Shown here piece by piece: positions 1-64,000 of a stretch of DNA of 64,000 nucleotides. The notes beneath the pieces were generated by a model. That model had not been told where the DNA came from, did not search any database, and saw nothing but the letters and a program-made list of their open reading frames with translations. The DNA comes from Dictyostelium discoideum (taxonomy: Eukaryota). A program made the position numbers and the translations under genes. The first letter of the stretch is position 1, and the number at the start of each line of letters is the position of its first letter. The stretch is taken from assembly GCA_000004695.1 (NCBI GenBank), contig CM000154.2:2208001-2272000 (forward strand), written 5' to 3'.

Positions 1-565
1 CCAACTTTTAAATTTTTATTTAAAATAAATGTTGAACTATCATCATCATCACTATCATTCTCTTCATCTTTATTATCAATTGGTGCTTGAAATCTAATTG
101 ATGATTTTGATTCAATTTTAAAAGCACCATCTTCTGGATCACTATTGAATTTACCATTTACAATAACATTTGAAGATTCTGCTATTGTGAAACCAACACC
201 TGATATTGATAAATCAACAAATTCAGATTCTTTATGTAATACACAATTACCTTTAATTGATACACTTGAATCATGAGAATATGATTTTATACCATTTGAG
301 AAATAACAAGTTGGATCATTTATTATACTCATAAATTCGATATCCATAATTGTTGATTTTAATGTTAAACGTGGTTCAAATCTGAATTTTTCATCACTTT
401 CATTTCCACTACCAATAAGTTGTAATTTTGAATTCTCTACATTAACTGTTATTGCTTCTGTATTTAAATCAATGATTTGAAATTTTATTTCACTATTTAT
501 AATATTAATTGTACTATTATCAATTTCACATTGTAATTGTTTAATTAAACCAATTTTTGAATTAT

Positions 566-597
<32 letters not shown>

Positions 598-977
598 TTA
601 TAGTTATTTAATTCAATTATTAAATTTGCACCATTAACTTTTAAATTTTGGATATTTAATTGATCTAATGATTGTGTTGAATTATCATTTGAAATTTTAA
701 AATGAACTGTTACACCATTTAATAAATCTATATTTGGTATATTTATGTTTTTATCTATTACATAATAACTATTTTCACCTGAAAATTTTAATAAATCACA
801 AGTTTCATTGGTAGGAACTTTATTTGTTGGCCATATTGATTTTTGATTAAAATTGCATGGTTTACTTTTAGAACAATCCATCTCAATTGGTGAACAATAC
901 ATACATACTACATTATTTATATGAAATGATAATGTTATTAAAATTAACAATAATGAAAATTTTAAAAACTTAATCAT
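1..977 (-). CDS. Secreted Cys-containing protein, partial: its 3' end runs off the window start
   Basis: Minus-strand reading frame starts at ATG 977..975 and stays open to position 1. The N-terminus MIKFLKFSLLLILITLSFHINNVVC is a hydrophobic signal peptide, followed by Cys-spaced and Asn-rich sequence and an acidic tail DSDDDDSSTF. It is missing from the ORF track because the window edge truncates it. No homolog recognised. Confidence 0.5.
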
Positions 978-1539
978 TTTATTTTATTTTATTTTTTTAA
1001 TTATATACATATAATTTTTATAAAAATTTAAATGATATATAGAGAGAAGAGACAGAGAGAAGTTATAATTTTTATTTTTAATTAAAAAAAAAAAAAAAAA
1101 AAAGAAAAAAAATTAATTTTTAAAAACCAACCAAAAAAAAAAAAATTAAATTGAAAAAAAAATAAAAAAAAAAATAAATAAAAATAAAAAATTTAGCTCT
1201 AAATATGTAGTAATTGCGGAGTCAGCAAAACCAAAATTTCTATGAAAATTAAAACCAAGATTGTAATCAAGATTGGTTAAAAAAAATATTAAACAAAACT
1301 TTTGGACAAAAAAAAAAAAATTTATAATCATTTTAATTTTTTTTATTTTTTTATTTTTCCATAATTACCAAAATATCTTAAAATCACTCTTTTTTTATTT
1401 TTTATTTTTTTTTAAAATTTTTTTTTTTATTAATTTTTTTGAATTTTCCTTAATCACTTTTTTTTTTTTGATTTCATTTTTTTTTTTTTTTTTTGTTTTA
1501 TTTTATTTTCAAACGAACGATATAAAAAAAAAAAAAAAG

Positions 1540-2312
1540 ATGAATAATTTTAGAAATTTAATTAATCAAAGTATTAGAAATTATTCAACAACAACAAATG
1601 TTGCAACTAAAACTAAAGTTTATGAATTAAAAACATATAATATTTTAGCAAATAATATTCCATCATTTTTTGAATTATTAGGAGAAAATAAAGGTTCAAA
1701 TAGTTTAGGTACTTGGGTAACTGAAATGGGTAGTTCAAATCAAGTTATTAGTTTAGTTGAACATGAAAGTTTAGATGACAGACAAATGAATGAATGGAAT
1801 ACTAAATTTCAATCAAAAGCAGCTAAATTAATTGAAAAACAAGAATCATTAATTCTTAGAGAATTCCCATGGGCACCATTTCAAAAGATTTCCAATGAAA
1901 AATCAAATGAAAATAAAGTTTGGGAATTAAGAACTTATCAATCCAAACCAGGTAAATTAGGTCAATGGGCCATCGATTTTACAACAGGTTTCGCTGAAAG
2001 AAAGAAAATCTCTGAACCAGTTGGTGTTTTCTATAGTGAATTCGGTCCTTTAAATACAATCGTTCATTTATGGCCATATAAAAGTTTTGAAGATAGATTT
2101 AGAATTAGAGATTTAGCTTTAAAAAATCCAGTTTGGTAAGAATAGAAAAAATAAAAAATAATAAAAAAATAAACTATAAAAGGAAATAATTTTTACTAAT
2201 AATTAAATAATTTTTTATAATAATATTATAAAATAGGGTTGAAACTGTTGCTAAAACAACTGCAAATTTAGATTCAATGGAAAGTAAAACTATTATTCCA
2301 GTAAAATTATAA
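1540..2312 (+). CDS. NIPSNAP-family protein, probably mitochondrial. Two exons: 1540..2135 and 2237..2312
   Basis: ATG at 1540 lies in frame with ORF-track ORF 1273..2139; the upstream poly-A encoded part is treated as non-coding. The protein carries the repeated YELRTY NIPSNAP motif (VYELKTYNI, VWELRTYQS) and an N-terminal presequence MNNFRNLINQSIRNYSTTT. A GTAAGA donor sits at 2136 and a TAG acceptor ends at 2236. Exon 2 encodes ...DSMESKTIIPVKL, which matches the conserved NIPSNAP C-terminus (human ...HMESRIMIPLKISPLQ). Confidence 0.8.
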
Positions 2313-2607
2313 ATTATTTCAAAATAAAATTATTAAATAGTAGAGAGTATTTGTGTTTTTTGCTATCTTAAACTATTTTTATTATTATTTTTTTTTTTAA
2401 CCAAAATTTATTAATAAATTTCCTTTTTTTTATACATATAATATTACATGAATTTATTTTTTATTTCTTTTCTTTTTTTTTTTCCTTTTTTTTTTTTTTT
2501 TTCTCTCTCTTTTCTCCTTTATTGTTTGTTTGCTGCTTCTAACTATAAATTTTATAAAAAAAAAGAAATTAATAAAATATTTTTGAAAAAATAAATGTTT
2601 GAATGAA

Positions 2608-3097
2608 TTAAAAAATTACTTTTTTAGATAAATCATCAACTCTTTGAGTTAATGCGGAAACTTCAGCTTTGAGATCAGCATTTTCTTGTTTTAATGCATC
2701 AACATCGATACCTAAAGAATTTCCAAGATGTTTTTTAATAAATCTGTAAAATAAATAAAAATAAAAATAAAGCTATTAATAATTTATATATATTATGATG
2801 TGATATATTTCTAATATTAAAAAATATTTTAATATTACTCTAATGCATCTGAAGGTTTATCAGATTCTTCGTATAAGCCAACAAGTACTTTAGTTAATGC
2901 ATCTATGACACCACTCTTTTCTAAATAACCTTTGAATTCTTCTTTTTCTGCTGAATTCTTCAAAAATTCAAATAAAAAAAGAAATTAAAATAATGAAAAA
3001 TGAGATTTAAAAAAAGAAAAAAAAAACAAGTAAAATAAAATAAAATAAAAATAATTTGATAAATTTAGACATTAGTAATTTTAAAACTTACTTGCAT
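2608..3097 (-). CDS. mycbp: c-Myc-binding protein (MYCBP/AMY-1) homolog. Three exons: 3097..3092 (ATGCAA micro-exon), 2960..2839, 2743..2608
   Basis: Manual minus-strand translation gives MQ/NSAEKEEFKGYLEKSGVIDALTKVLVGLYEESDKPSDALE/FIKKHLGNSLGIDVDALKQENADLKAEVSALTQRVDDLSKKVIF. This aligns closely with human MYCBP (…FRRYLEKSGVLDTLTKVLVALYEEPEKPNSALDFLKHHLG…). Donors are GTAAGT and GTAATA, acceptors are AG, and the phases are consistent (0/2/1+). A 6-nt first exon is typical of Dictyostelium. Confidence 0.75.
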
Positions 3098-3556
3098 GAT
3101 TTTAAATAGTCTTTATATATAATTGCGGGTATGAAATTTAAAAAAAAAAAGTTTTTTTTTTTTTTTTTTTTATTTTCAAAAAAAAAAAAAATCTAAAAAA
3201 AATAAAAAAAAAAAAAAATAAAAAAAAAAAAAAAAAAATTAATTAAACAATCCTTTTTTTAAAATTTTTTAAACATTCAAATTTGACTTTTAAAAAAGAA
3301 AAAAAAAAACATCAAAAGACTCCTACATCTAAAAAAATGATTAAAAAAAAAAAACTTTTCTCTAAATATTTTTTTATTCAATAATATTAAAAATAATAAT
3401 AAATAAAAAATAATAATTTTATTAAGAAAAAACAAATAATAGAATAAAGGTAAATAAAATTTTGAAAAATAAAACGAAAAAAAAAAAAAACAAAGAATAA
3501 GAATAATGGAAAAAAAAAAAATAGAAATTTTAAATTTTATTATATACATTTTTTTT

Positions 3557-3592
<36 letters not shown>

Positions 3593-3608
3593 GATAATCT
3601 TTTTTTCC

Positions 3609-6600
3609 TTAATCAGTTTCAACAGTTACATCACCACCAGTTCTCACAGGAGCACGAACTCTAAAAACTTTAACATATTCAGAGGTTTTAATATGATTTA
3701 GTGCTAAAGGTGTAACGAAAATATATTGTTTTGATCTATTTTCTTCAGCTTTTGACATTAAAAGATTGATAGAGATTGAACGATTTACTTCATCCATGAA
3801 AACATCGAATTCATCCATTGCACGGAAAGGACATTCCATATTCTCCCAGAAGGCCAATAATAATGATACAGTTGAGAAAGAACGTTCACCACCAGACAAA
3901 CCTTTGGTATCACCTTTGGCAGTACCATTTTGATTGGAAGGCAAAGCTTTTTGAAGTTCGACATTGATATCCAATTTACCATTTTGATGATCAAAAGTCA
4001 ACGAACCAGTGTAACCTTTCTTTGATAAGAAAATATTAAAGTATTGATCGGATCTACGAGAGATTGAAAGACGGAAACGTTGCCATTTCTTATAACGTTC
4101 ATTCAAATTTCTTTCCAATATGGTTGCCAATTCTTCAATGTTATCACGTTGCTCTGAAATCTCCTTGAGGGAATTATTTGCGTCTTGGAAAAGTTTCAAA
4201 GCTTCAGTTCTTGAACGTTTACCTCTGGACTCTTTCTCTAGTTGTTTTGTATATTGAATGATTTTATTGGTGAGTGTTGTATTGGTTTCATTGGTTGGTA
4301 TTTCAATACGTTCACAAATTTGAGTGGCTTTATCGGTTTTCTCTTTGACAATTTCTAAAATTCTTTGATATTCAGCTTTGAATTGATCTCTTTCTTGAGC
4401 ACTTCTACCTTGTTGTTGAAGCAATGCTTGTTTATTGTTATTGAGTTTTCTAAGACCTTCATTGAATTTTCTTAAATTATTTTCAATATTACCCAACTGA
4501 TTGGAAAGAACATCGATTTGATCATCCAATGCTCTGTTATTTTCAGCGAATGGTCCTTTTTGAGCGGCAACCTCAGTACGTTGAGCTTTTTGAATATTGA
4601 TCTCCTCATCCATTGATTTAATTTCCTCATCGAGTGAAGCTAAACCAATTTCCAACTCTGAATAATCATCAGTTTGTTGAACCAATGTATCTTCGATCGA
4701 TTTAATCTCATTAGTGATTTGTAGGATTTTACGAGAACATTGATTTTGATCTTGATCATTTTGACTGATTTTATGTTCAATGGCTTGAACATCACTACTC
4801 AATTCTTGTTCAATCTTTTTCTGTTGATTTAATGCTGGTAATTTCGATTCCATATCCCTTTGAGTACGTTGAATAGCAGCATCAGAATTTACACGTAACA
4901 TGGTGGCCTCACCAGAATTCTTTGCAGCTTGATAGAATGGATTACCACTCTTGGTTTTGGAATAATTGTTACCTTGTGGATCAAAGAATTGAGATAACCC
5001 ACGTGGACATCTATCAGTGTACAATACAGAATCAATCTCTTTACGATCATTACCCAACCCAATTTGTTCAACTTTTTTAGTATCAATTAAGAAATTAATA
5101 ATGAAATGAGAAGGTGAATCGAGAACACGTAACACTGTAGCTAAAGATGGATCCAATTCATCATGTTCCACAGTTTTATAGACTTCAGTGGTTTCGGGTA
5201 TTTTCGTATAATCAACTTTAATACCAAACTGATGACCCAGCTTTTGAAGGGTAATACCATCTGGAATGGAAAATACCAAAAAGTTTCTAAGTGTAGCCTT
5301 TGAGATTGCCGATTCAATAGCGAATGCCCAACTTTCATTCTTTATCTTTAAACTTAAACCAATGGGTCCAATGGGTAACTTTGAGAAATTACGACGACTT
5401 GCTTCAATTTTATGAAGAAAATCGGTCATACCTTTGCCATAGGCTTGATTTTCACCTTTTTGAGTTGATCTTAAATTGTTTAATTGTACTCTCAACCCTT
5501 CATACTCTCTATTCATCTGTTGGGTGATTGTACGTTGATTTTGATGATCTCTCTTTAAATTCTCTCTATCTCGCATTAGATCCTCTTTTTCTTTAATTAA
5601 TTCCTCCTTTCTTGCCTCCAATTGAAGTTTTTGTTGACCTTTCTTTTTAATCTCATCCAATTTCGATTGATTATTTGCCAATTGAGCATTTCTCTCTTTG
5701 ATTTCATTAATCGATTGAAGTTGAAGATGACGACGTTGTTTTCTTTGTTGTCTCTTTTTATTGTTTGCTTCAATTTGAGTTTGAATCTTTGCCTCTTCTC
5801 TTTCGATTGTCAATATCTCTCTATTGTTTGTCTCTTTCTTTTGTTCCTGTATTTTAATTTGATCTGTAAATTCTTTAATATCCTTTTTAATGTCTTCAAT
5901 TGATTTATTATATGTCTCAATGGTTTCATCAACTTTTCTAATATCATTATCAAAAGATCTCTCCTCTGCTTCTGCAACTTGTTTCTCTTTTCTCTTTGCT
6001 TCTCTCTCTGATTCAACAACAAAACTCCATGCTAATTGATTCTTAAATTCACTAATCTTTCTCTCTAATCCAACCATTTGTTGTAAATCTTTATATTCTT
6101 TATTATATTCTCTAACTTTTTTTTCTAATTCTTGAATTACCTATCATTTATTTTTAAAAAAAAATTAATAATAAAATTAATAATAAATAATAATTTTAAA
6201 AAAATTAAAAAATTAATTTTACTTACAACAACTTTTTGACTTAACATATCTTTAATTTTATCAATATGTTCTCTAATTGTTGTATAATCTTTGGTCATTT
6301 TATCTAATTGTGTTGCCATAAGGAATGATTTATATTTATCTTGTGGACCAGCAGAATTTAAGAATTGTCTACTGGTATCTTGAGTTAAAATTGACATTGG
6401 ATTATCAATTTGAATATTAAATTGTTCTAAAATCAATGATACATCATTAAATTTATCTGAAACCGTTTTACCATTATAATCTTTAACTTTATATCCACTT
6501 GAACCAGTTCTACTAATTCTTCTTTCAATAATAACTGATTTACCATATTTCTCTGGTTTAAATGCTTCTTGACCTTGATTTCTTAATTTAACTGTAATTA

Positions 6601-9888: not shown

Positions 9889-12392
9889 AAAAAAAAAATA
9901 ATAATAATAATAATATAAATAAAAAAATATCCTCCCAAACCTAAACAGTTTTGAAAATAAAAAAATTAAAAAAACAAAAAAAATATTAATAAAAATAGTA
10001 TTAATAAATTATTATATTAAATATAATCATAAAAATTAAAAAAAAAAAATAAAAAAAATAAAAAAATAAAAAAAAAGAATTTGAAAAAGACAATCAAAAA
10101 TGTATTTACGTAATTCTTTTTTTATATTATTGTATTTGGGTTTATAAAAAATAAAAATAAAAAACAATAAATAAGAGAAAAAAAAAAGTATTAATAAATT
10201 ATTATGTTAAACTGGAAATTTCAAAAAAAAAAGTATTTTGGGTCAAACTGAAAAAAATCAAAAAAAAAAAAAAAAATATTAAATTTATTTTTTCTCTATT
10301 TCTATTTTTAAAAAAATGGTGAAACTGAAATACTCCCATTAAGCAAGAATTGAAAGAACGAAACTCAATAGATTGGTAAAATACATAAATGGGTGGTCCT
10401 TGTTGCATTTTTGTGAAGACTTCCCCAAAAACAGGGTTTAATGGTTGGAAATTGGAGAGGATTTTATTAAAAAAAAAAAAAAATTATTAAAAAAAAAATG
10501 GAAAAAAAAAAGAATTTGAAAAAAAAAAAAAATTAAAAATGTATTTACCTATTATTCTTTTTTTCTTTTTTTATATCTCTACATATTATTGCATTATTTG
10601 GGTTTTAAAAAAAATAATAAAAATTAGTTTAGGAAAAAAAAAAAAATATATTATTATTTTTTTTTTTTAATAATAATAGTTTTTTTTTTTTTTTTGAGTT
10701 AAATTGTTATTAAAACTTTTATTAAGAAATATGGAGGAAAATTATAAAGATATTATTTATTATATGATTAAAATTTTATTTATTTTTTTAATTGGAAATT
10801 AAAAGAAAATTGAAAAAAATCAGGTAAAACATTATAAGTTGATTTGTTTTGATTTTTTTTTTTTTTTTTTTTAAATATCCCTTTTTTTTATTATTATCAG
10901 AGGAACATAAACAATCACAATTTCAAGATTATTTCTCTAAAAAATAATAATAATAATAATAGTTTTAAAAATTGTGTTAGTACTTTTTTATTCTTTTTTT
11001 TTATTTTTTTAGAGCCACAAAAAATCTAATAATTTTTTTAAAGGAATAATATCTTCTTGGTGGCTATTTTTCAATTAATTAATTTTAAAAAACCTGTGGG
11101 AAAAAAAAAGAAAGAAAAAAAAAAAAAGAATATAAATGTTAGTAGGACTAAAATTATAATCCAGAATAATTAAATCTTCTCATGTTGGAAAAGACAAAAA
11201 AAAAAAAAAAAAAAAAATAGTTTTTTTCTTTTTCTTTTTCTTTTTTTTACTTACCAAAAGGCATTAGAAATACAAATTGGTTGGACTTGAAACTTTTTAT
11301 TTATACTGAGAAAAAATAATAAAAAAAAAAAAAAAAAAAAGAAAATTTAAAAATAAAAAAAATAAAAAAATGATGTAACAATGGCATTATTACATTTACA
11401 AATTACATCATAACGTATTGTTATTTAACATTTAAATATTCTAATAATAAAAAAAAAAAAAAAATAAAAAAAAAAAACTAATATAAATATAAAAAAAAAA
11501 CCCCAGAGAAAGAAAATAGATTGATGAAAAAGAATAATCTTCTGTGTGTGTGTCTTTTTTGTTTTGAAATGATTTTTTGAAATTTCAATATTTTCATAAC
11601 CACCAACAAAAAAAAAAATATTATTTTAAAAATAAAATTTGTAGTGAACCCCACCACACACAAAAATAAACAAAAAACAACTAGATTTAGGACTGAACAA
11701 CACATAATAAATTTAGTATTACAAACCACAGATTTTATTCGAAACTAATTGTTTAAAAAGCAGTTATTTTATAAAAAAAAAAAAAAATTAAAATAATAAT
11801 AGTTATTATTAGTATAATTATTATTTTTATTATTTTCACTTTTGAATTACCTAATTGATTAACCCCTTTTTTTTTTATTTTTATAATAAAAAATTAAAAA
11901 AAATGAAAAAATGATTCCGGAAGTGATTTTTATGAATTACCAGTTTTGAGTGACTATGGGTATATTTAAAATGAAAAGTGGACTGTTTTTTTTTTTTTTT
12001 TTTTTTTAAAAAATTGTCTGAATTCTTTGTTTGAATTAAACTCAAGAAAACCTTTGATAATAAAGTAAAAAGGTGGATAAATTTTTTTTTTTCAATAATC
12101 AAAAAAAAAAAAAAAAAAAGGATACGACTAGTCAAAATTTAACAACATTACAATAAAATTGTTCAACCCATTTACGGGGTTAATTGATTTACGTTATATA
12201 ATTCCAATTTGAATAAAAGTGTTTATCGGTTCAATTATTAATAAAAATAAAAAAAAAAAGGCTTTTTAATAATATTATTAAATGAATTTGTGAATCTTTT
12301 TTTTTTTTTATTATTTTAATTATTAAATTTTAACAATTTCGTGACCACCATTAAAGCACCTGTGCAATAAGCAAATTAAAAAAAAAAATTTC

Positions 12393-41617: not shown

Positions 41618-41727
41618 TTTATTTGGTCAGATTTGTGCGAACACGGACGGTTAATTTCAAAGCCTACGAATGAACGCGAGCTCAACAGACGATCAGATAA
41701 TGTGCAACCAATCATCATTCAAATATT
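41618..41727 (-). ncRNA. Candidate box C/D snoRNA, about 106 nt
   Basis: The minus-strand sequence is 5'-UAUUUG A AUGAUGA U UGGUUGCACAUUAU CUGA UCGUCUGUUGAGCUCGCGUUCAUUCGUAGGCUUUGAAAUUAACCGUCCGUGUUCGCACAAAU CUGA CC AAAUA-3'. It has a perfect box C (AUGAUGA), a D' box (CUGA) 15 nt downstream, a terminal box D (CUGA), and a 6-bp terminal stem (UAUUUG/CAAAUA) flanking C and D in the canonical way. It sits on a GC island of about 45% in a 4-kb AT-rich spacer. Confidence 0.45.
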
Positions 41728-52285: not shown

Positions 52286-55272
52286 ATGAAAGGAATAAAA
52301 ATAATTTTAATTTTATTTTTAATACTTAAAATAAATTTAATAAAATCTCAAGAACCAATAAATATATTTATTAAAAATGGTGATGATCTTTGTAAAATTA
52401 ATAATTATTTAATACCATTTTCAAATTCAACCTTACCAATAATTTTAAACATTCAGAATGGAAATTATTATTCAACATGTAAAATAATAATAAATAATAT
52501 AAATAATTTAACTATAATACCCAATAATAATAAAAATAATAATAATAATAATGATAATAATGATAATAAAAATAATAATATTAATTTGATTGATATTGAA
52601 TTTGATTTTAAAGATTCAAATATTGAATTTTTAGAAATTAATTTTAAAAATCAAAATAATAGTAAAATTAATATTGAAAGTAGTAGTATAATATTAAGTG
52701 ATAGTAAATTAATATTAGGGGTATATTTTGAAAGTTTAAAAAGTTTTTTAAGAATTAATAATTCAATTATTAGTGATTCAGTATTTGTAATTTATAATTC
52801 AACAGTTTTAATTGATAATTCAACGATTAAATTCAATGAAATTTTTCAATATATAATAACGGCGACTAATACTACTACATCTTATTCATTATTACTTTAC
52901 AGTATATTTTCACAAAGTGAAACAAATATATCAATTAAAAATGGAATAATTGAATCAAATGGTTATTATAATAGTAATTTACAATTATTTAGTGATGGTA
53001 TTGAAGATTTAACAAATTCAATAACAATTGAAAATATAATAATTAAAGGATTTTCAAATAGTAAATTATTAATTGAAGCAAATGGAAATCAATTAATTAT
53101 TACAAATATTACCATAACAAATTGTAATTCAATAGTATTCATTTCAACTCAATCAATTCAATCAATTACAATAAATGGTATATTATTAATTGGAAATAAA
53201 AATTTTATATTAATTTATATAAATAAACTTTGTAATTTAAATATAAAAAATTTATTAACTAGTTGTGATAATGGTGTAAATAAAAATTCAGCATTAATTA
53301 AAAGTAGTGAATATATTGAACTTAATAATAATAATAATAATAATAATACAACAAATTATCAAATAAATATTAGTAATTCAAAATTACATTGTTTTGGAAA
53401 TTCAATTTTTAAAAGTTCAGAAATTAAAATTGAAAATGTTTCAATTTTAACGAATCCATTATTTCAAATTGATGATAGTTTTTTCATATTAAATAATAGT
53501 GATTTAAATATGAAATCAAGTTCAATAGTTTCAATTAGTTATTTTAAAGTATTGAGTGATTATTTCTTTCAACTTGAAAATCAATCAAATTTAGTAATTG
53601 ATAATTGTACATTTACAAACAGTACATCTGGAATGATATCAGCAATCAATAAATCTAAAGTATTATTATCAAGTATAGTTATTAATAATATTCAATTAGA
53701 TAATATACCATTTTTTAATATTAATAATTATTCACAATTAGTGATATCAAATAGTAGTAGTAGTAGTAGTAATCAATACAATGGTGTGATTATTGGTTTA
53801 AATATTAAAAAATATTATGGAACCAATTCACCATTAATTCTATCAACTTCAAATTCTATAATAAATATAGAATCATTAGAATTATCAGAAATTTCATTTA
53901 ATTCAAATAATAAAAATAATAATTATAATGTAATTGCAATTATAAATTTATTTTCATCAAGTTTATATATTAAAAATTCAATAATATCTCATTGTTATTC
54001 AACAGATTCAATTTTTAATTCAAATGATGGAACTGATTTTTTAGTTGAAAATGTAAAATTCTTTCAAAATTTTATAATATCATCTCAACAAAGCACAACA
54101 AGAAAACACAACAGAATTTATTTGGTAAAAGGATGGGTAGTATATTTGAACTGCAGGTTGATAATGTGAATTTTACAAATGTAGAATTTAAAAAGAATTC
54201 ATTTAGTCCAATATTAGGAACCTATAAATCAAATAATATAATATTAAATAGTATTATATCTGAGGATAATTTGGGATCATTTTGGTTTTCAACAAATGAT
54301 AAAAACTTGATTTCAAATAATTTATCATTGATTAATAGTAGAGTCCCAATTAATTATTTCTTTGGCTCATTATTTTCAAAAAATATAACATTTTCAAATT
54401 TATCATTAAAAAATAACTATTTCTTAAATTACTTATTTGATATTTATTATGGTGATTTGGTATTGTTTGAAAATGTTACATACTTTAATAATAAAGTCAT
54501 TAGTACACAAGGTAAAGATAATTGGCCATTCTTAAATAGGTATATGTCTCCAATGGATTTAACATACTCTCAATTTAGATTCTTAAATAATAATCAATTA
54601 AAATTTAAAAATTTCAATGTAATTGATAATCATTTCTTTTCAAGCATGATTTATATTTATGAATCAAATTTTATATTTGAAATTGGTAATATTGAATTTA
54701 ATAAATTTTATAATTATTCAAGAACTTCATTTTTAATTTCACAACATTCAATAATAAATTTAAATAAAATTAATTTCATTTCAAATAATTCAACTTATAA
54801 TATTTTATTTGATAGTGATAGTGATATTAGTGGTGGTGGTAGTAGTGGTAATAATAATATAAAAGGTGAAAATGAAATATTTGGATTAATTTATACATTT
54901 AATTCAAATTTTACTATGGATTCTGGTATACTCTTATGGAATGATTTCCCATTTAGTAATGGTTCAATAATTAATCATGCTTGTTTATCATCATCAGTAC
55001 ATTCCTATACTCTTTCAATTATTAATTCACAAATTTCTAATAGTATTTCAAATTTTGGTACTTTACATTTAGAATTTTCAATGGATAAAAATAATCAAGT
55101 TTTATTAAAAAATAATACATTTTCAAATAATTTTGCAAAAACTGGTTCTGTACTATATGTAATTGGTTTTGGTAATATTGGTAATTATAATCAATCAATT
55201 TTTTATAATTCAAATAGTTTTCAAAATAATTCTTGTATTTTTGGTAATAGTATAATTTCTTCAGGTATTTAT

Positions 55273-55304
<32 letters not shown>

Positions 55305-57121
55305 CCAAATAATAAAATAAAGGTATTATTTAATAAATAATTAATTAATAAAAATTTATTTTATAATTAGGAATTCCAAAAATTTTCCCAATTGAAAAAA
55401 TTATTGTTTATGGTGGTGACCAAATTGAAATTAATTTTCCATTTATTGATTATTTTAATAATCCAATTGATTATATTCCAGGTGTAAAAAATTTATCAAT
55501 ATCAATTTTAAATCCTTCAAATTCACCAAATCGTATAGATCAAGTTTTTATTCCACCAAATGTAATATCTGGAATAGGTACAATTTTTTATACATTTAAT
55601 GTTAGTAAAGAGGTTGAATTTAAAATTTTTTTTTTAAATTTTCAAGATTTAAATCCAATTAAAGTAAATGTAATAGGTTGTTCACCTTTTACTTTTCCTG
55701 ATAAACAAAAGGGTTGTTCTTTTTGTCTAATTGGTTCAACTGTTAAAAAAAGATATTATTATGATGATGATGATCTTATTGAACCTTGCAAAATATGTCC
55801 AGATAGTTTAACTTGTGAGAATGGAGATGTTTATTCCCATGTTGGTTATTATTTAATTAATCAAGATGTATCATTGGTTTACCAATGTGCATTAGATATG
55901 TGTTTAGAAAATAATCAATGTTCAAATAAAAATAATTATGGTGATTTATGTTTTGAGTGTATTGATAATGATGGAAATCAAGTTGTTTCAAAAAATGGTA
56001 TTCAATGTTGTTCAAAATTTATAGGTTGGTTAATAATTCCAATTATTTTAATTTATTTAATATTTGGTTTAATTCTATCTTATATAAAATATACAGTATT
56101 TAATAGTTTATTATGTAAATCCATATTATTTATTCAAATTAATTCAGTGATTTTCTTTCCTTATAGTGGTATTTATTTTTTACCATTATTTAGAGGTTCA
56201 CTTGATATGATTGATGGTATTTGTTTATCAAAGAATTTAAACTATATTGGCAAAGTATACTTGTCATATTTAATAATAATTTTATTATTTATAATTGGTT
56301 CAACTGATATAACAATTAAGTTATTTATTAAAATTTATCAAATATTTTTTAAAAAATCTAAAGAGTCAACAGTATTACCAAATTTCATAGTAAAAATATT
56401 AATAAGAAAAAAACAATATGGAGAATTTAATTATAAAATGAAATCTTTGTTTTCACTATTTCAAATTTTATTAATACCATTACTTTTCAATTCAATTTCA
56501 ATGTTGGTAAAGAAAAATATTCTTTACAACACCACTCGATTAATAATGGATTTTTCAATAATCAATTCTTCAAATCGAACCTTTTTACAAATTATTTCAA
56601 TACTTTTATTAATAATAATTGGTTTTTTTATTTTATTAGTGGTTTTAATATTTAATTTAAAAACATTTTTAAAATTAGTTAAAAAATTAGGACTAAATCT
56701 AAAATTCATTGAAAAATTTAAATTACAATCAAAATTAATTCAAATTTTAAATACTGACACAAGTAATAGTATATATAGGAATCAATTTAAATGGTGGAAT
56801 GTTATTGAAATTATTAGATCAATTATATTTTCCATTCTTTCAATATCAATGATATTCTCACCAAATTATTATATGTTAATTATAGTTTCAATACAGTTTA
56901 TCTATACATTCCTTTATATATTTTTTGAACCATTGCAAAAGAAATATTATTTTAAAAATATTTTAATTAATTTTTCCCAATTAATAATTTTTACAATTTT
57001 TGGTTCCTCTTTATTTCAAACATTGATTTTACCATTTTTTAAAGGTTTAATAATTTCAATTTTATCTTTTTTGGTTTTTATTATTATAATTTTTTTTAAA
57101 AAAATAAATAAAAATAAATAA
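52286..57121 (+). CDS. Giant secreted beta-helix (PMP-repeat / pectin-lyase-like) protein with a Cys-rich module and a C-terminal multi-pass transmembrane domain. It has an internal frame break and one intron
   Basis: Three ORF-track ORFs are linked. (a) 52286..~54130 in frame 2, with a signal peptide MKGIKIILILFLILKINLIKSQ and hundreds of residues of N/S/I-rich repeats of the form L-V-x-N-V-x-F-x-N…G-x-I (FxxN/GGxI-like). (b) A frame change to frame 1 somewhere in 54046..54133, where both frames are open and overlap, continuing to 55264. (c) A donor AG|GTATTT at 55265, a 106-nt T-rich intron, the acceptor …ATAATTAG ending at 55370, and exon 55371..57121 in the same frame as ORF 55874..57121. 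This last exon encodes a Cys-rich EGF-like segment (CKICPDSLTCENGD…CALDMCLENNQCSNK…CFECIDNDG…CCSKF) and at least 7 hydrophobic transmembrane helices. Confidence 0.6.
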
Positions 57122-57373: not shown

Positions 57374-57446
57374 GGGGATGTAGCTCAGATGGTAGAGCGC
57401 TCGCTTAGCATGCGAGAGGTAAAGGGATCGATACCCTTCTTCTCCA
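57374..57446 (+). tRNA. tRNA-Ala (anticodon AGC) with an atypical T-loop, followed by a T8 terminator
   Basis: The sequence GGGGATGTAGCTCAGATGGTAGAGCGCTCGCTTAGCATGCGAGAGGTAAAGGGATCGATACCCTTCTTCTCCA folds as a cloverleaf. The acceptor stem GGGGATG/CTTCTCC includes the G3:U70 Ala identity pair, the A-box reads TAGCTCAGATGGTAGAG, and the anticodon loop is CTTAGCATG (AGC at 57407..57409). The T-arm is AAGGG-ATCGATA-CCCTT, so position 54 is A rather than T and the B-box (GGGATCGATACC) deviates from GGTTCGANTCC. TTTTTTTT at 57447..57454 is a Pol III terminator. Confidence 0.75.
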
Positions 57447-57473
57447 TTTTTTTTGCCTAAAAATTTAGATTAA

Positions 57474-57485
57474 GGGTTCGACTCC
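57474..57485 (+). promoter_or_regulatory. ex-B box (an extra B-box-like motif, GGGTTCGACTCC) 28 bp downstream of the tRNA
   Basis: It matches the B-box consensus GGTTCGANTCC better than the intragenic B-box does. Dictyostelium tRNA genes characteristically carry such an ex-B element shortly downstream, which is linked to targeting of TRE3 retroelements. Confidence 0.4.
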
Positions 57486-57493
57486 TTAAAATA

Positions 57494-58526
57494 TTGTTAA
57501 CATTTGAAAAAAAAAAAAACCGTACCGCGATCAAGAGGATACAAGATACACGTGAAAAAAAAAAAAAACCGTACATAAAAAACGAAAATGGACAACCACT
57601 TTCACTGGCAGAATGGTATACCACAATTCAAGACCAAAATCCAACCATCCCTAAAACGGAATTCCAATCATCTCTAAACTTAAGAGGCTACAGCTATAAT
57701 CAACTCTTCAACAACATACTGAAGATAAAAGACCCTAAAACAAGAGACACAATGTTTAGATTCCATGCCAGATGCCTTCCAATAAACTACCTTCACAACA
57801 AACAATGCCCACTCTGCAAAGAAGATATGAGCAAAGACCCATACGGTCACCTGTTCTTCTCATGCAAGAAAACAAAACAATTCATAAAAATAAATAAATA
57901 AACTCAAAAATTTCATCTATATTACCACAGGCAAAGGTAAAAACTGGCACCATACAAGAATTAGGCAAAATAACAATTTCATTAATAGAATAACTCCAAA
58001 ATTGTCACCGACAGCCAAAAAAGATCAAGAAGTGAATGCAGATTACGCCAACCACAGATTCCACAAAGAATACTTTGAATGGAACTATAAAGCAATAGAC
58101 TATGATCATTCGCATATAGAAACCTAATGGCCCTTATCCTCCACAACATTTGGATTTGGATTTGCAATCAAATATACAGTGAAGATCCTTTAACAGATGA
58201 ATCACTATCATACAGCTCCCTTCTAAAGAAATGGCACAAATTGGCCACTCTAGAATACATCAAAAAAGCAAAAGATCTGAAAAACTTATCAGCAAAAGAC
58301 CATAATAACTTCAAAGATCCTAAGATCCTTCTCACTTCAACGATCAAGCTAAGAAAAACAACAGCTAATTACTATTGTATTCCAGAATCATCTCTCCCAA
58401 ATATTATATCTTTTGATCAATTCATATGATTAAAATAACCCTTCAGCTTAAATGATAAGCATTTAAATAAATATTAAATAAAACTCGTATTAACACAGAT
58501 GGACATATATCAATCTTGTTAATCCA

Positions 58527-58560
<34 letters not shown>
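57494..58560 (+). mobile_element. 5'-truncated TRE3-like non-LTR retrotransposon fragment (the 3' part of ORF2 plus the poly(A) tail), inserted about 50 bp downstream of tRNA-Ala
   Basis: GC content (about 40%) is distinctly higher than the flanks. ORF 57494..57901 ends in a LINE ORF2-type C-terminal Cys motif RFHARCLPINYLHNKQCPLCKEDMSKDPYGHLFFSC (C-x2-C-x11-H-x4-C). A second frame (58127..58429) continues, and the element ends in about 35 A at 58524..58560. Its position and orientation fit the TRE3 class of tRNA-gene-targeted retroelements that integrate 3' of tRNA genes. Confidence 0.5.
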
Positions 58561-58565
<5 letters not shown>

Positions 58566-60229
58566 ATAAACTGAACCAGTTAGCTAACTACCAACTAGCA
58601 CCACAAGAGAATTTGGATCGAAAACAATAAATGTTTTGATAGAATAAATAATAGAACTATATATTTATTAATTCTAAATAGAATTTTGGTTAGTTAAAAG
58701 AAGATAATATAACAAGTAGTGGTCTAAAGAGACTAGGTTTGGGAGCACTGATTCAGAATGCAATTAACTTTACATGTTAAGTTTCTAAAATTAATAATTT
58801 GATTGAGAAAACGTTTAGATATTTTTTTATTCTATCAAATATAATTTAGTTTCTATTTTTTTTTTTTTATTTTTAATTTTTATTTTTATTTTTTTTTTTA
58901 GTTAAGTATATTAAATTTAAAAAACTAAAATAAAAAAAATAATAAACAAAATAAAATAAAATAGAAACTAAAATTTATTTGATCCTAAATCTAAAATAAT
59001 AAAATTTTACTTTTGTTTTTTTATATAATTAAATTTTATTTTTTGTTTTTTTTTACTCTATTTTTAATTTTTTTTTTTTTTTTTTCAAATTTTTCATAAA
59101 TTTATCTAAAATAAATTATTTGCTTTATAATAATGCTGTTGTTGTTATTGTAATGGTAATTGCAATTTCTGTTGTTGTTCTATTAACTGTGAGATTGGTG
59201 ACGTTGTTTCATTATTATTATTATTTTGTTGACCAGTTATCATTGGTTCGTTATCCTCGTTATTTGATTGTTTAAAAATTAATTAATAATTTAATTTCAA
59301 GTATGCCCTATTTTTTTTTTTTTTTTCTCAAGCACAAAAACAACAAAAAGAGATATAATATTATCAGAAATGAATTATCTAAAAATCCTTTGATGAATTA
59401 TTGAAAAATTTAGATTTAAACTGTAAATAAAATAATATCAAATAAAAATAAAAAAAAAAGATATAATAATTTCTAAAAATAGAAATCAAATTAAAAAAAA
59501 TAAAAAATAAAAAATAAAAAAAAAATAAAAAATCAACCCTATATTTTTTTTTATTTTCCTGAATAGGAAACAAAAAACCAAAACAGGAATTTATTGATCA
59601 ATGATTAAAAAGAGTAAAAATGAAAACAAAAAAAAAAAAAAAAAAAAAAATTTTAATGATCTGAATTCCTTTTTTGGTTTATAATAATCTCATCCAAACT
59701 TGGTATGAAAATAAATAAAAAAAAAAAGAAAAAAAAAGTATAAAAAAAGAAAAATTTTCTTTTTAATTTTCATTCATAAAATAAATTCTAACAAAACAAC
59801 AACTAATAAAAAAATAAAAATTAAATATATACAAAAAAAGAATTAAAATAGTATTGTGAAAAAAAAAAAAGTAAATTATTTATAAAACATTATTAAAAAT
59901 AATACTAATTTTTATATATTACTTTTATTTTTTTCTTTTTTTACTATTAAAATAAAGATATAGGTGAATGGAATTCTAAAAAAGATTATACATAATATTG
60001 GTTAATTATTCTTGAATTTCAATTTAATAGTATTTTTTTCAATTTCTTTTTTTAAGATTAATTAAAGAGGGTTTAAAGAGTATTACAAAGATTTTTACTC
60101 CAATGGATCATAATTGGAGGGGCATCACAGATACAATAATTTTTTTTCAACTTTTTAAATGATAAACAAAACAAAATGGATTAATTTCTATTTTGTTTTA
60201 ATCTTTTGTGTAGGAGAATTAAAATTTTC

Positions 60230-60425
60230 TATTCTGGAGTTGTCCTTCTTTTACATTTTCATTGTACGCCGGGTGGTTTGAAGCCTTATCATTCACATAT
60301 ACAATGAAGCATCATTAGTGGATGATCGTGCTGTAATCAGTTAAAGTGGGCAAAGTTGGGGAGTCAGACATGCCTCCCATCCTAATCGAGGAAACGACCG
60401 ACCACTCCTCATTTACATTCTTTTT
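60230..60425 (+). ncRNA. Candidate structured non-coding RNA (a GC island with several hairpins, the 3' one followed by a T-run)
   Basis: A 190-bp block at about 45% GC with no ORF in any frame. It contains hairpins GGGAG-UCAGACAUGC-CUCCC (60357..60381) and GAGGA-AACGACCGACCAC-UCCUC (60387..60409), followed by ATTTACATTCTTTTT. An upstream hairpin CCAAT-GGATCATA-ATTGG (60100..60117) is followed by …AATAATTTTTTTT at 60133..60147. It matches no U1/U2/U4/U5/U6 snRNA core that I can recall. Confidence 0.25.
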
Positions 60426-61412
60426 AGAAATAAAAAGAAACTTCAAACATGTAATATTAATTTATTATGTCAAGTGTTTCGAAGGTAAATGTGCTAATTA
60501 GAATATTGTAATTCCTGGGTATTACCTCTTTTCAAAATCATAAAAAAAAAAAAATAAAAAATAAAAAATATGAAAAAAAAAGGAAATTAATCAATCACAA
60601 CTCTCTCAATAGATTATAGTTCAACAAAAAAAAAAAAAAACAACAACTCAATCAATATGAAAATCAATTATTTTTTTATATTGTCGTAATGAATGTTGTT
60701 TTTTTTAATACTATAACACTTTTGTTTTCATAAATCAATAATATCACCTTCAAAAAAAAAGTAAGTTATTTTTTTTTTTTTTTTTTTAATAATAATAATT
60801 ACCGTTCACTGAAACTATAACAATTTTAAAAAAATTCAAAATACCTAGGTTACATTAATGTTCTTATAAGAAGGCGAAGTGTGTTCTCAAACTCAAATAA
60901 AAAATAAAAATCCATTCCAAAGAAAGTGTTTTAAACTATTTAGTAAATTAGAATTTAAATAATTTTTTTTAAAAAAACCTTTCAATTATAATCAAATTAG
61001 TCAATGTTTAAATAAAAAACACCTTTAACTTATTGATCATACAAATTTTTTTCATTTTTTCATTTATTTTCTAATTATTATTATTTTCTATTTTCTTTAT
61101 TTATACAACCCCAAAACTCTTGTATTTCCAATCAAGACAACACATAAAAGGATACACACAACATAAATAATAATAAAAGAAAGAAAATATTTTTAACGAG
61201 ATTTTAAAATCATTAAAAAAAAAAAAAGGAAAATTAGAAGAGAGTTTATTAATGTGTATTTTTTTTTTTTGTTTTTGTTTTTGTTTTCTGTTTTTTTTTG
61301 TTTTTTTTTTTCTGTTTTTTTTTTCTGTTTTCTTTTTCTGTTTTCTGTTCTTTTGTTTTTCTGTTTTTTTTTTTTATTTTCTTAAAAAAAAATTAATTTT
61401 TGTTTACCAAAA

Positions 61413-64000
61413 CTAACTATCAACCTCTTCATCATAATTTAAATTGTTATTATAATCATCATCTGGATTTTGAATTAAATCATTCAAGAAACTAAGTTGT
61501 TTAATGAATTTTGATTTCATTGTTTCTAATTCTGTTAAAATTTCGGTAAATGATGGACGTTGTGAAGGATCGGAAGCCCAACATTTTGTAATTAATTTTC
61601 TAAGGGACACTGGACAATCGGGTGGGATTGCAGGTCTATAATTTTCAAATGCAGCTTTAGCTGCAGATGCAGTACCATCCAAACCTTCGAATGGTATTTT
61701 ACCAGTATAAATTTCATAAACCACCAAACCAAAACTGTATACATCAACTTTTTCATTATACACCAATCCTTTTGTTAGCTCTGGACTTCTCCAACGTGGA
61801 TTAGTTATACCACTTAATGTCATATCATCGCTTAAAGTTGTTGCTAATCCAAAATCTGCAATTTTAATATTTTTAAATTCATCCAACTAAAATAATAATT
61901 ATAATAATAAAAATGTTAATATAAATAATATAAAGATAAAATATTTTTATTATAATATTCTTTCTTTTTTTTTTTTTTTAAAAAAAATAATAATACATAC
62001 TAAAATATTTTTACTTGTTAAATCTCTATGTAACATTTGAATTGAATGAAGATGTTCCATACCTAAAGATAAATCATGAATCATTTTATACATCATTAAT
62101 GGATTTAATTTAATTTTTTGAATATGTAAAACATCATAAAGAGAACCACCTTGAAGATACTCTGTAAAGATACATGGTGGATCAATACAGGCACCCATAA
62201 AAGTGACAACATTTGGATGATGAGATTTAATTAAACTTGAAACTTCTTTTATGAATTTTTCATCATTGGAAATACTTTCATTCTTTAATATTTTGATGGC
62301 AACTTTATAACCATTCCAAATACCAAGGAAAACATTTGCAAAACTTCCGGCACCAACCTTTTCAACGATGGCAACTTCATCAAATTTAATTTCTTTCTTT
62401 CCACGTAAAAACTCTGTAATTTCATTGAAACGCTCTTTCTTTTGAAGTTCTCTCTCCACCTCTTGATCATTATTTAACGACCAAAGTATACCTGGTGAAG
62501 AAAAGAATAATTTTCCCTCCAAATGATCGAAAAGTTTTAAGATATCATTGAAAGTTGGTCTATCACTTGGTAGAGGAGCCCAGCATCTATTAATTAGTTT
62601 ACGGATGATCAATGGACATGAAGTTGGTATCTTTGGTCTTAGATTTTCATAGGCGACTTTGGCAGCCACAGAGATATCATTGAATTTTCTAAATGGTAAA
62701 TGCGAAGTCAATGCCTCCCATAAAACAAAGGCATAGGCATAGACATCGATTGAACATGATATTTGATCCTCTTCCATTCTTGTCATTTCCGGTGCCATAT
62801 ATCTTGGTTCAATGGCTGGATTATTTAAATCGGTAGCATTCAACTTTGGGAATGATACTTTTACAATTTGAAATCTATCAAGATAAATGGACCTACTTGT
62901 TAAATTACCATGTGCAACATCTTTTGAATGTAATAATCCCATAACGCTTGCAATGTCCTTACTTATCTTTATAAATAGTGCCATATCAATCTTTAAACCA
63001 TCCCTATGAATTAAGTCATGTAATGAATTCATACCTTTAAAACTTTCAAAAATAATTGAATCACCACACCAACCAACTAATAATCCAAGATTTTTATGTT
63101 GAATCATTGTATATTTACTTGGTATAACTTCACTATTACTACCATTACTATTATTACAATGATGATGATTATGATTATTACCACCACTGCTGCCACTATT
63201 ATTACTTCCACTAACATTACTACCATTAAATAATTGTTTTCTTTTTTCAATATTTTTATCAGAATCTTGATCTTTTGGTTGTTTTAATACTAATTGAGTT
63301 GATTTATATTCAATTTGCCAAATATTACTTGATTTTGAATTTGATTCTAATTTCTCCAATAATTTAATTTCTTTAAATTCAATTGGTTTTGTATAAAGTT
63401 GATTCTCTCGTATCAATTGAGTTAATGATTCAAATTGTTCTTCATTCTTTTTTTCATAAGAATCAATTGATTCATTTTCATTCTCAAAGAATTGTATTGG
63501 ACTATTTATTGAAGAGTTTGATGATGTTTTAAAACATCCATTATTATTACCACCACCACCACTACCACTACCACCACTAATACTTGCACTACCGCGTGGA
63601 GAAGTATTTATACTACTATATAATTCAGCTCTTAAATCCAATGGTCTAAGTTCAATTTTTAATTCTTGTGAAAACTTTCTTAATGAATTTGTTAAATTTG
63701 AAGAAGTGGAAGAGGTTGATGATGATGGATTCATTGATCTTGGTGAGAGAGGATTACAACTTATTGTACTAGTACTACTTCCATTAAGGCTCCAATTACT
63801 ATTACTATTTGAAAGTGATGTTATTAAATTTTCCAATTCAATAATTTTTTCATTGATTTTTTGAATTTCTTCTGAAAGATTTTCAAAACTATCAGCATTC
63901 TCTGAATAACCTTCATCAATTAGATTTTGTTTCTCAATTAATGATTCTTTTTTCTCTATTAATTCATAAATCTCTTTTCTAGTACAACTTAATTTCTCCA
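61413..64000 (-). CDS. Tandem pseudokinase-kinase (JAK-like architecture), TKL/tyrosine-kinase-like, with its 5' end off the window. Exons: >64000..62001 and 61886..61413
   Basis: The reading frame of ORF 61950..63836 (TTG 'start') stays open upstream to the window end (…EKLSCTRKEIYELIEKKESLIEKQNL…ELENLITSLSNS…). The first kinase-like domain has a degenerate catalytic loop, HGNLTSRSIYLD, instead of HRDxxxxN, and keeps …DVYAYAFVLWEAL…. The second domain is canonical: VGAGSFANVFLGIWNGYKVAIK…HRDLTSKNIL | (GTATGT…TTTTAG, a 114-nt intron) | LDEFKNIKIADFGLATT…WRSPE…DVYSFGLVVYEIYTGKIPF…CWASDPSQRPSF. Confidence 0.8.

Follow-up and report, generated by a model that had tools for sequence, protein, structure and literature searches.

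The locus analysed here raises a simple question: what is the GC-richer block of DNA that stands behind a tRNA gene, and how did it come by its present form? The window, by which we mean the whole 64,000-nt stretch of Dictyostelium discoideum DNA analysed, has an overall GC content of 21.6%, whereas the block at 57500-58400 reaches 0.32-0.375, against about 0.14 upstream. An initial annotation had described an element of about 1.07 kb with raised GC content, read as a 5'-truncated, poly(A)-tailed LINE fragment of the TRE3 type inserted behind a tRNA-Ala(AGC) gene and an extra B box. Our analysis leads us to conclude, with a probability of about 0.92, that the block is indeed a TRE3 retrotransposon, most likely TRE3-A, which integrated 55 bp past the tRNA-Ala(AGC) gene in the orientation of that gene. 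The features on which this conclusion is built are collected in Table 1.

Table 1. Features of the tRNA-Ala(AGC) locus and of the element behind it, in window coordinates
Feature	Position	Strand	Evidence or remark
tRNA-Ala(AGC) gene, Pol III target	57374-57446	+	ARAGORN; Rfam RF00005, 58.1 bits
Internal B box of tRNA-Ala, GGGATCGATACC	~57425-57436	+	
Pol III terminator, T8	57447-57454	+	read from the letters
External B box (exB), GGGTTCGACTCC	57474-57485	+	pattern match; kept in L019, L020 and L021
ATTTG, first inserted nucleotides at the 5' junction	57502-57506	+	its ATTT is a possible left copy of a target-site duplication
TRE3 5'-terminal unit 1: A13 + CCGTACCGCGATCAAGAGGATACAAGATACACGTG (element nt 1-35)	57507-57554	+	match to L003; nine other copies
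TRE3 5'-terminal unit 2, partial: A14 + CCGTAC (element nt 1-6)	57555-57574	+	ends at the internal-deletion junction
ORF2 C-terminal remnant, residues ~975-1260 of a 1260-aa ORF2	57575-58429	+	95% identity to P0032 and P0001
CCHC zinc knuckle, CX2CX10HX4C	57806-57865	+	in the ORF piece
TRE3 3' UTR (102 nt), ending in CTTGTTAATCCAATATT	58430-58531	+	aligns with L001, L003 and L008-L012 at their 3' ends
Poly(A) tail, A31	58532-58562	+	A19-A30 at the same point in other copies
TTT at the 3' junction	58563-58565	+	empty-site comparison; with the last A may be the right ATTT copy, ambiguous
Native single-copy intergenic DNA, outside the element	58566-58860	.	collinear with L020 and L019

The target side of the locus proved to be as first described. 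ARAGORN and Rfam alike call a single tRNA gene in the window, that for tRNA-Ala(AGC), and it is followed by an oligo-T terminator. The extra B box, which we refer to as the external B box (exB), starts 28 nt past the 3' end of the tRNA. Its pattern, GGTTCGANTCC, gives 1 match in the 64-kb window versus 0.01 expected by chance. The box is unchanged in all three orthologous loci of diverged lineages (L019, L020 and L021), and the tRNA-Ala sequence itself is the same in the window and at the orthologous loci L019 and L020. Similar boxes are found at +32 to +45 past the tRNA in L001 and L003.

The tRNA-Ala gene has also been a target elsewhere. At the orthologous locus of D. cf. discoideum (L021, 1213-4281), an element of about 3 kb encoding RVT_1 lies about 34 bp upstream of tRNA-Ala. 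Its orientation is opposite to that of the tRNA gene, which makes it TRE5-like, and its RT region is 68% identical to the TRE3 reference. The presence of this TRE5-like element implies that the tRNA gene was struck independently in sister lineages.

The limits of the inserted DNA come from sites that lack it. We reached the syntenic loci via the rps7 gene of the window and reconstructed the neighbouring spliced gene, which yielded the orthologous intergenic region in three lineages (L019, L020 and L021), all about 90% identical to the window. The ACTFIT assembly of D. discoideum (L015) is 99% identical to the window over 10 kb. In both L019 and L020, tRNA-Ala and exB are present and the insertion site is empty. 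The empty site of L020 reads GGGTTCGACTCCTTAAAATATTGTTAAC/GATAAACTGAACTAG, or in short TTGTTAAC/GATAAACTGAAC, the slash marking the insertion point. The filled site of the window, by comparison, reads TTGTTAAC-ATTTG-A13...A31-TTT-ATAAACTGAAC and continues ATAAACTGAACCAG. Because these sites are empty, the inserted DNA can be bounded at 57502-58565; its first nucleotide therefore lies at 57502 and not at about 57494, where the element had been thought to begin. It also follows that the insertion postdates the split from the lineages that are about 10% diverged, since those lineages keep the empty site. Logan contigs containing the upstream gene stop right at the tRNA, with no flank beyond.

The same comparison identifies the 300 bp that follow the poly(A) tail. 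This DNA (58561-58860) had been suspected of being a second partial insertion. At the two empty sites, however, the segment 58566-58860 follows directly after the exB flank, and it is 84% identical to L020 (4094-3850) and 88% identical to L019 (4133-3977). Neither the 21 loci nor the remainder of the window contained another match to it. Because the segment is collinear with the empty sites at this level of identity, we conclude that it is host DNA.

Several further features of the window deserve mention in their own right. Downstream of the native segment, about 400 bp (58866-59265) cannot be aligned to the L019 or L020 intergenic region; this is a lineage-specific indel, of which 59166-59265 has a GC content of 0.30. 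Further on, the block at 60220-60520 has a GC content of 0.33-0.44 within AT-rich intergenic DNA, and its identity in two lineages at about 10% divergence is 95-97%, compared with 85-92% for the flanking stretches. Its fold z-score is weak (-1.48), its only ORF is a dubious one of 51 aa, and Rfam over 58560-61420 returned nothing except a chance miRNA match (E = 0.53). This block may represent a small gene or an ncRNA that has escaped annotation. On the other side of the tRNA gene lie a DdR7 C/D-box snoRNA gene (41624-41721, minus strand; Rfam RF01575, 123.9 bits) and an upstream membrane-protein gene (52286-55320). The latter has two long ORFs, 52286-54169 and 54133-55320, which differ in frame, with an overlap of 37 nt and without an obvious AT-rich intron. 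Possible readings are a pseudogene, a frameshift or an intron of very small size; in the orthologues the annotation shows one gene each, 1584-1820 aa long.

Between the boundaries set by the empty sites, the inserted DNA forms a poly(A)-tailed remnant of 1.06 kb on the plus strand. It starts at +56 from the 3' end of the tRNA, with its A-run at +61, and 16 bp beyond exB (+17 from the exB end). Remnant and tRNA gene share the plus orientation, and the poly(A) is distal. There are no terminal repeats. The poly(A) run that had been reported is present, although it is 31 nt long rather than an A35 ending at 58560. As for the target-site duplication that the initial annotation had suggested looking for, the empty-site comparison allows ATTT at most, a 4-nt repeat that borrows the last A of the tail and is ambiguous, whereas other copies have duplications of 6-11 nt. 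We do not regard it as convincing.

The coding content of the remnant was read from a conceptual peptide of 278 aa, in which three frame segments are joined across two apparent frameshifts. This peptide matches D. discoideum proteins, P0001 included, with up to 95% identity at 97% coverage, and the D. purpureum protein P0002 at 50% identity across the full query. It aligns at 95% to residues 979-1260 of P0032, a protein of 1260 aa, and the window holds the C-terminal 286 codons, with the original ORF2 stop at 58427-58429. P0032 contains RVT_1 at 551-760 and a match to Exo_endo_phos (APE) at 36-280 that is below the Pfam cutoff (E = 0.0026). The domain order APE - RT - zinc finger is read from this protein, the window copy having the zinc-finger/C-terminal part only. 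The CCHC knuckle, which had been ascribed to a LINE ORF2, thus belongs to the tail of an APE-RT protein, as proposed. The coding end, on the other hand, had been placed at 57901, and the remnant extends past the knuckle and across both frameshifts to 58429. All the database matches are named 'hypothetical protein', and there are dozens of near-identical copies on several chromosomes.

As a reference for the changes in the window copy we used five full-length copies, mutually identical over the compared stretch. Relative to these, the window copy carries 2 substitutions over 957 nt. In addition, its ORF2 frame is interrupted twice, first by a tandem duplication of 4 nt at 57888-57891 and then by a deletion of 10 nt after 58103. 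Because they are seen against five identical full-length copies, the apparent frameshifts must be real indels; and because so few substitutions and only two indels separate it from those copies, the window copy must be young. It is also non-autonomous and cannot move by itself, since ORF1, APE and RT are absent from it.

Related copies behave in the same way. Among the genomic loci encoding relatives that we compared, which include L001, L003, L008, L009, L011 and L012, seven related copies lie downstream of a tRNA on the same strand (one each in L001, L003, L008, L009 and L012, and two in L011). They start +52 to +158 bp past the tRNA 3' end, and several copies are stacked behind one tRNA in L003, L011 and L012. 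Full-length relatives, such as the one at L008 5830-11060, are 5224 nt long when counted from CCGYAC through the 3' UTR, with a leader of A7-8 in addition. They encode an ORF1 of 417 aa and, with a 1-nt overlap and in the -1 frame, ORF2; the window copy lacks this region.

These properties are those of TRE3 elements, which integrate 40-150 bp downstream from tRNA genes and in matching orientation, past the internal B box or exB, and which have two ORFs with a -1 frameshift, an APE-RT-ZF arrangement and an oligo(A) tail (PMC5911963; PMC5006619). Of the D. discoideum tRNA genes, 61% carry a TRE, and the TREs of D. purpureum are only TRE3-like (PMC5006619). Because placement, orientation, ORFs and tail match the literature, and because D. 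purpureum has only TRE3-like TREs, we file the element as TRE3. The proposal of a tRNA-targeted, co-oriented TRE3-type remnant behind the tRNA and exB is therefore borne out by position, orientation, homology, related copies and published work. The published lengths are 5229 bp for Dd_TRE3-A, the most abundant TRE3, 5279 bp for TRE3-B, 4734 bp for TRE3-C and 1559 bp (partial) for TRE3-D (Spaller 2016, Table 1, PMC5006619). The subfamily is probably TRE3-A, judged by the length of the full-length relatives and by abundance rather than by a reference sequence.

The relatives provide two further observations. Five full-length copies (L008-L012) are identical over the last 963 nt, implying that the family was very recently active. 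In L008, an 8-nt leader, AAGAGATC (5822-5829), sits between the target-site duplication and the A-run, and the L011 copy has this sequence as its target-site duplication (TAAGAGATC; ~5814-5822 / 11080-11088). This leader may be a 5' transduction that marks L011 copy 2 as the source element; 5' transduction could be used to trace source copies.

It is at its 5' end that the window copy departs from the initial description. Positions 57513-57558 match the L003 copy at its 5' end (L003 6554-6599) with 100% identity over 46 nt. Moreover, nine other copies start with an A-run (5-10 nt) followed by CCG(T/C)ACCGCGATCAAGAGGATACAAGATACACGTGAAAAGTAATTC, and the start consisting of an A-run and CCGYACCGCGATCAAG is common to them and the window copy. 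The stretch 57507-57574 is thus the element's own 5' terminus, contrary to the claim of a plain 5' truncation. The order in the window is ATTTG, A13 with nt 1-35, A14 with nt 1-6, and then ORF2 from the residue-975 codon. The deletion junction reads CCGTAC/ATAAAAAAC (in longer form, CCGTAC/ATAAAAAACGAAAATGG), and it shows a 1-nt (C) microhomology with intact ORF2, which reads CACATCC/ATAAAAAAC at this point. About 4.26 kb of interior, element nt 7-4261, is missing, and the last 957 nt are retained. Since it is not simply 5'-truncated, the element must be an internally deleted or template-switched copy.

Other copies offer some material for comparison. Different internal deletions are present in L002 and in element 1 of L003. 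None of the other 21 loci contains the deletion junction of the window copy, but this sample is too small to count. In L003 (6511-6600) and L009 (~5795-5842), the first 21-30 nt are partly reiterated in tandem, each unit being headed by an A-run.

In our view, the arrangement in the window was most likely made while the RNA was being reverse-transcribed, by template jumps that led from inside ORF2 to RNA 5' ends. We favour this origin because the breakpoints fall at RNA 5' ends and because the copy is very young; it would mean that the copy was dead on arrival. It is further conceivable, though we consider it less likely than not, that the A-run-headed reiterated 5' termini of the window, L003 and L009 are traces left by the TRE3 RT as it made serial template jumps. 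If true, defective TRE3 copies would preserve a record of the way in which the cDNA 5' end is resolved and joined.

A deletion in the DNA after insertion would fit the letters of the locus equally well. According to this alternative, which we consider possible but do not favour, a full-length TRE3 was inserted and then lost nt 7-4261 through replication slippage or end joining. The 1-nt microhomology at the junction, the two further small indels in the window copy and the other internal deletions in L002 and L003 element 1 are all consistent with such a loss. Against it are the youth of the copy, the position of the breakpoint exactly 6 nt from the 5' start of the element, and the resemblance of the A-run-headed 5' units in L003 and L009 to events at RNA 5' ends, although none of these points is decisive.

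Two nested events provide a less satisfactory explanation, one that we think improbable. An older insertion (A14-CCGTAC-ORF2 tail-A31) would have been joined on its tRNA side by a tiny 5'-UTR insert, 57502-57554. TRE3 copies are indeed stacked behind a single tRNA in places, the newer ones being proximal (L003, L011, L012; Spaller 2016, Table S2 note), but a 35-nt insert made of the 5' end only would have had no 3' UTR at which target-primed reverse transcription could start. Moreover, the older fragment would still require the fusion of CCGTAC to ORF2, and the comparable partial 5' units of L003 and L009 run straight on into their elements.

More improbable still is a plain 5'-truncated TRE3, for which reverse transcription would have come to an early halt, 57494-57574 being target DNA or random filler. 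ORF1, APE and RT are indeed absent from the copy, and in L001 a family member with a simple 5' truncation stands behind another tRNA. This reading is nevertheless refuted by the 46-nt identity with the L003 5' end, by the start common to nine other copies, and by the empty site, which shows that everything from 57502 on is inserted DNA. Finally, although gene callers annotate many such fragments as 'hypothetical protein', the idea that the ORF is part of a host gene with upstream exons is refuted by the absence of the whole block at the orthologous site in two lineages, the near-identical copies dispersed over several chromosomes, the poly(A) end, the twice-broken frame and the homology to the tail of an APE-RT protein.

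Template jumping, the origin that we prefer, can be set in a sequence of steps, of which we infer targeting, nicking and priming because they are established for TREs and LINEs generally. By analogy, a complex of the ORF2 endonuclease and reverse transcriptase would be guided to the Pol III factor complex (TFIIIC) on the B and exB boxes; it would nick the DNA, and the poly(A) tail would prime reverse transcription (target-primed). The last 957 nt of the RNA alone would then have been copied or retained, and this piece would have been fused at the 1-nt microhomology to element nt 1-6. A further partial 5' terminus (nt 1-35) would have been placed ahead of it, every unit being headed by an A-run. 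The 4-nt duplication and the 10-nt deletion are decay, which broke the frame further.

A TRE3 element behind a tRNA gene is already known biology and a textbook feature of the D. discoideum genome, and the locus matters little beyond annotation. What is gained are the exact boundaries of this copy, the proof from empty sites that its insertion is recent and lineage-specific, and the correction of the downstream 300 bp to host DNA. Because a 5' terminus is retained in this dead copy, it should not be tallied as a simple 5' truncation in TRE3 surveys.

Of the known systems, the closest is TRE3-A (formerly Tdd-3), the most abundant type. Shared with it are the co-oriented placement downstream from a tRNA gene, a poly(A), an ORF2 with APE, RT and zinc finger, the -1 frame and, in the full-length relatives, the length (5224 nt plus A7-8 versus the published 5229 bp). 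The window copy differs in keeping only about 41 nt of the 5' terminus, partly duplicated, and the last 957 nt. TRE3-B, TRE3-C and TRE3-D have the same integration preference and overall architecture, but their published lengths fit relatives of 5.22-5.23 kb less well. TRE5-A (DRE) is likewise an L1-clade element with two ORFs, an APE-RT-ZF ORF2 and a preference for tRNA genes. It inserts about 50 bp upstream and in the opposite orientation, however, whereas the element in the window lies downstream and is co-oriented, which places it outside TRE5. Skipper-2 (DGLT-P) also integrates downstream of Dictyostelium tRNA genes, but it is an LTR/integrase element without poly(A), and the window contains nothing of the sort.

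Beyond Dictyostelium, LINEs such as human L1 leave copies that are dead on arrival, and R2 elements undergo end-to-end template jumping, with microhomology and extra nucleotides at the junctions. The window copy resembles these systems in that defective copies would arise through target-primed reverse transcription and have microhomology and extra nucleotides at their junctions. The dead copies of human L1 are typically simple 5' truncations or inversions, whereas in the window copy the 5' terminus is retained and partly reiterated.
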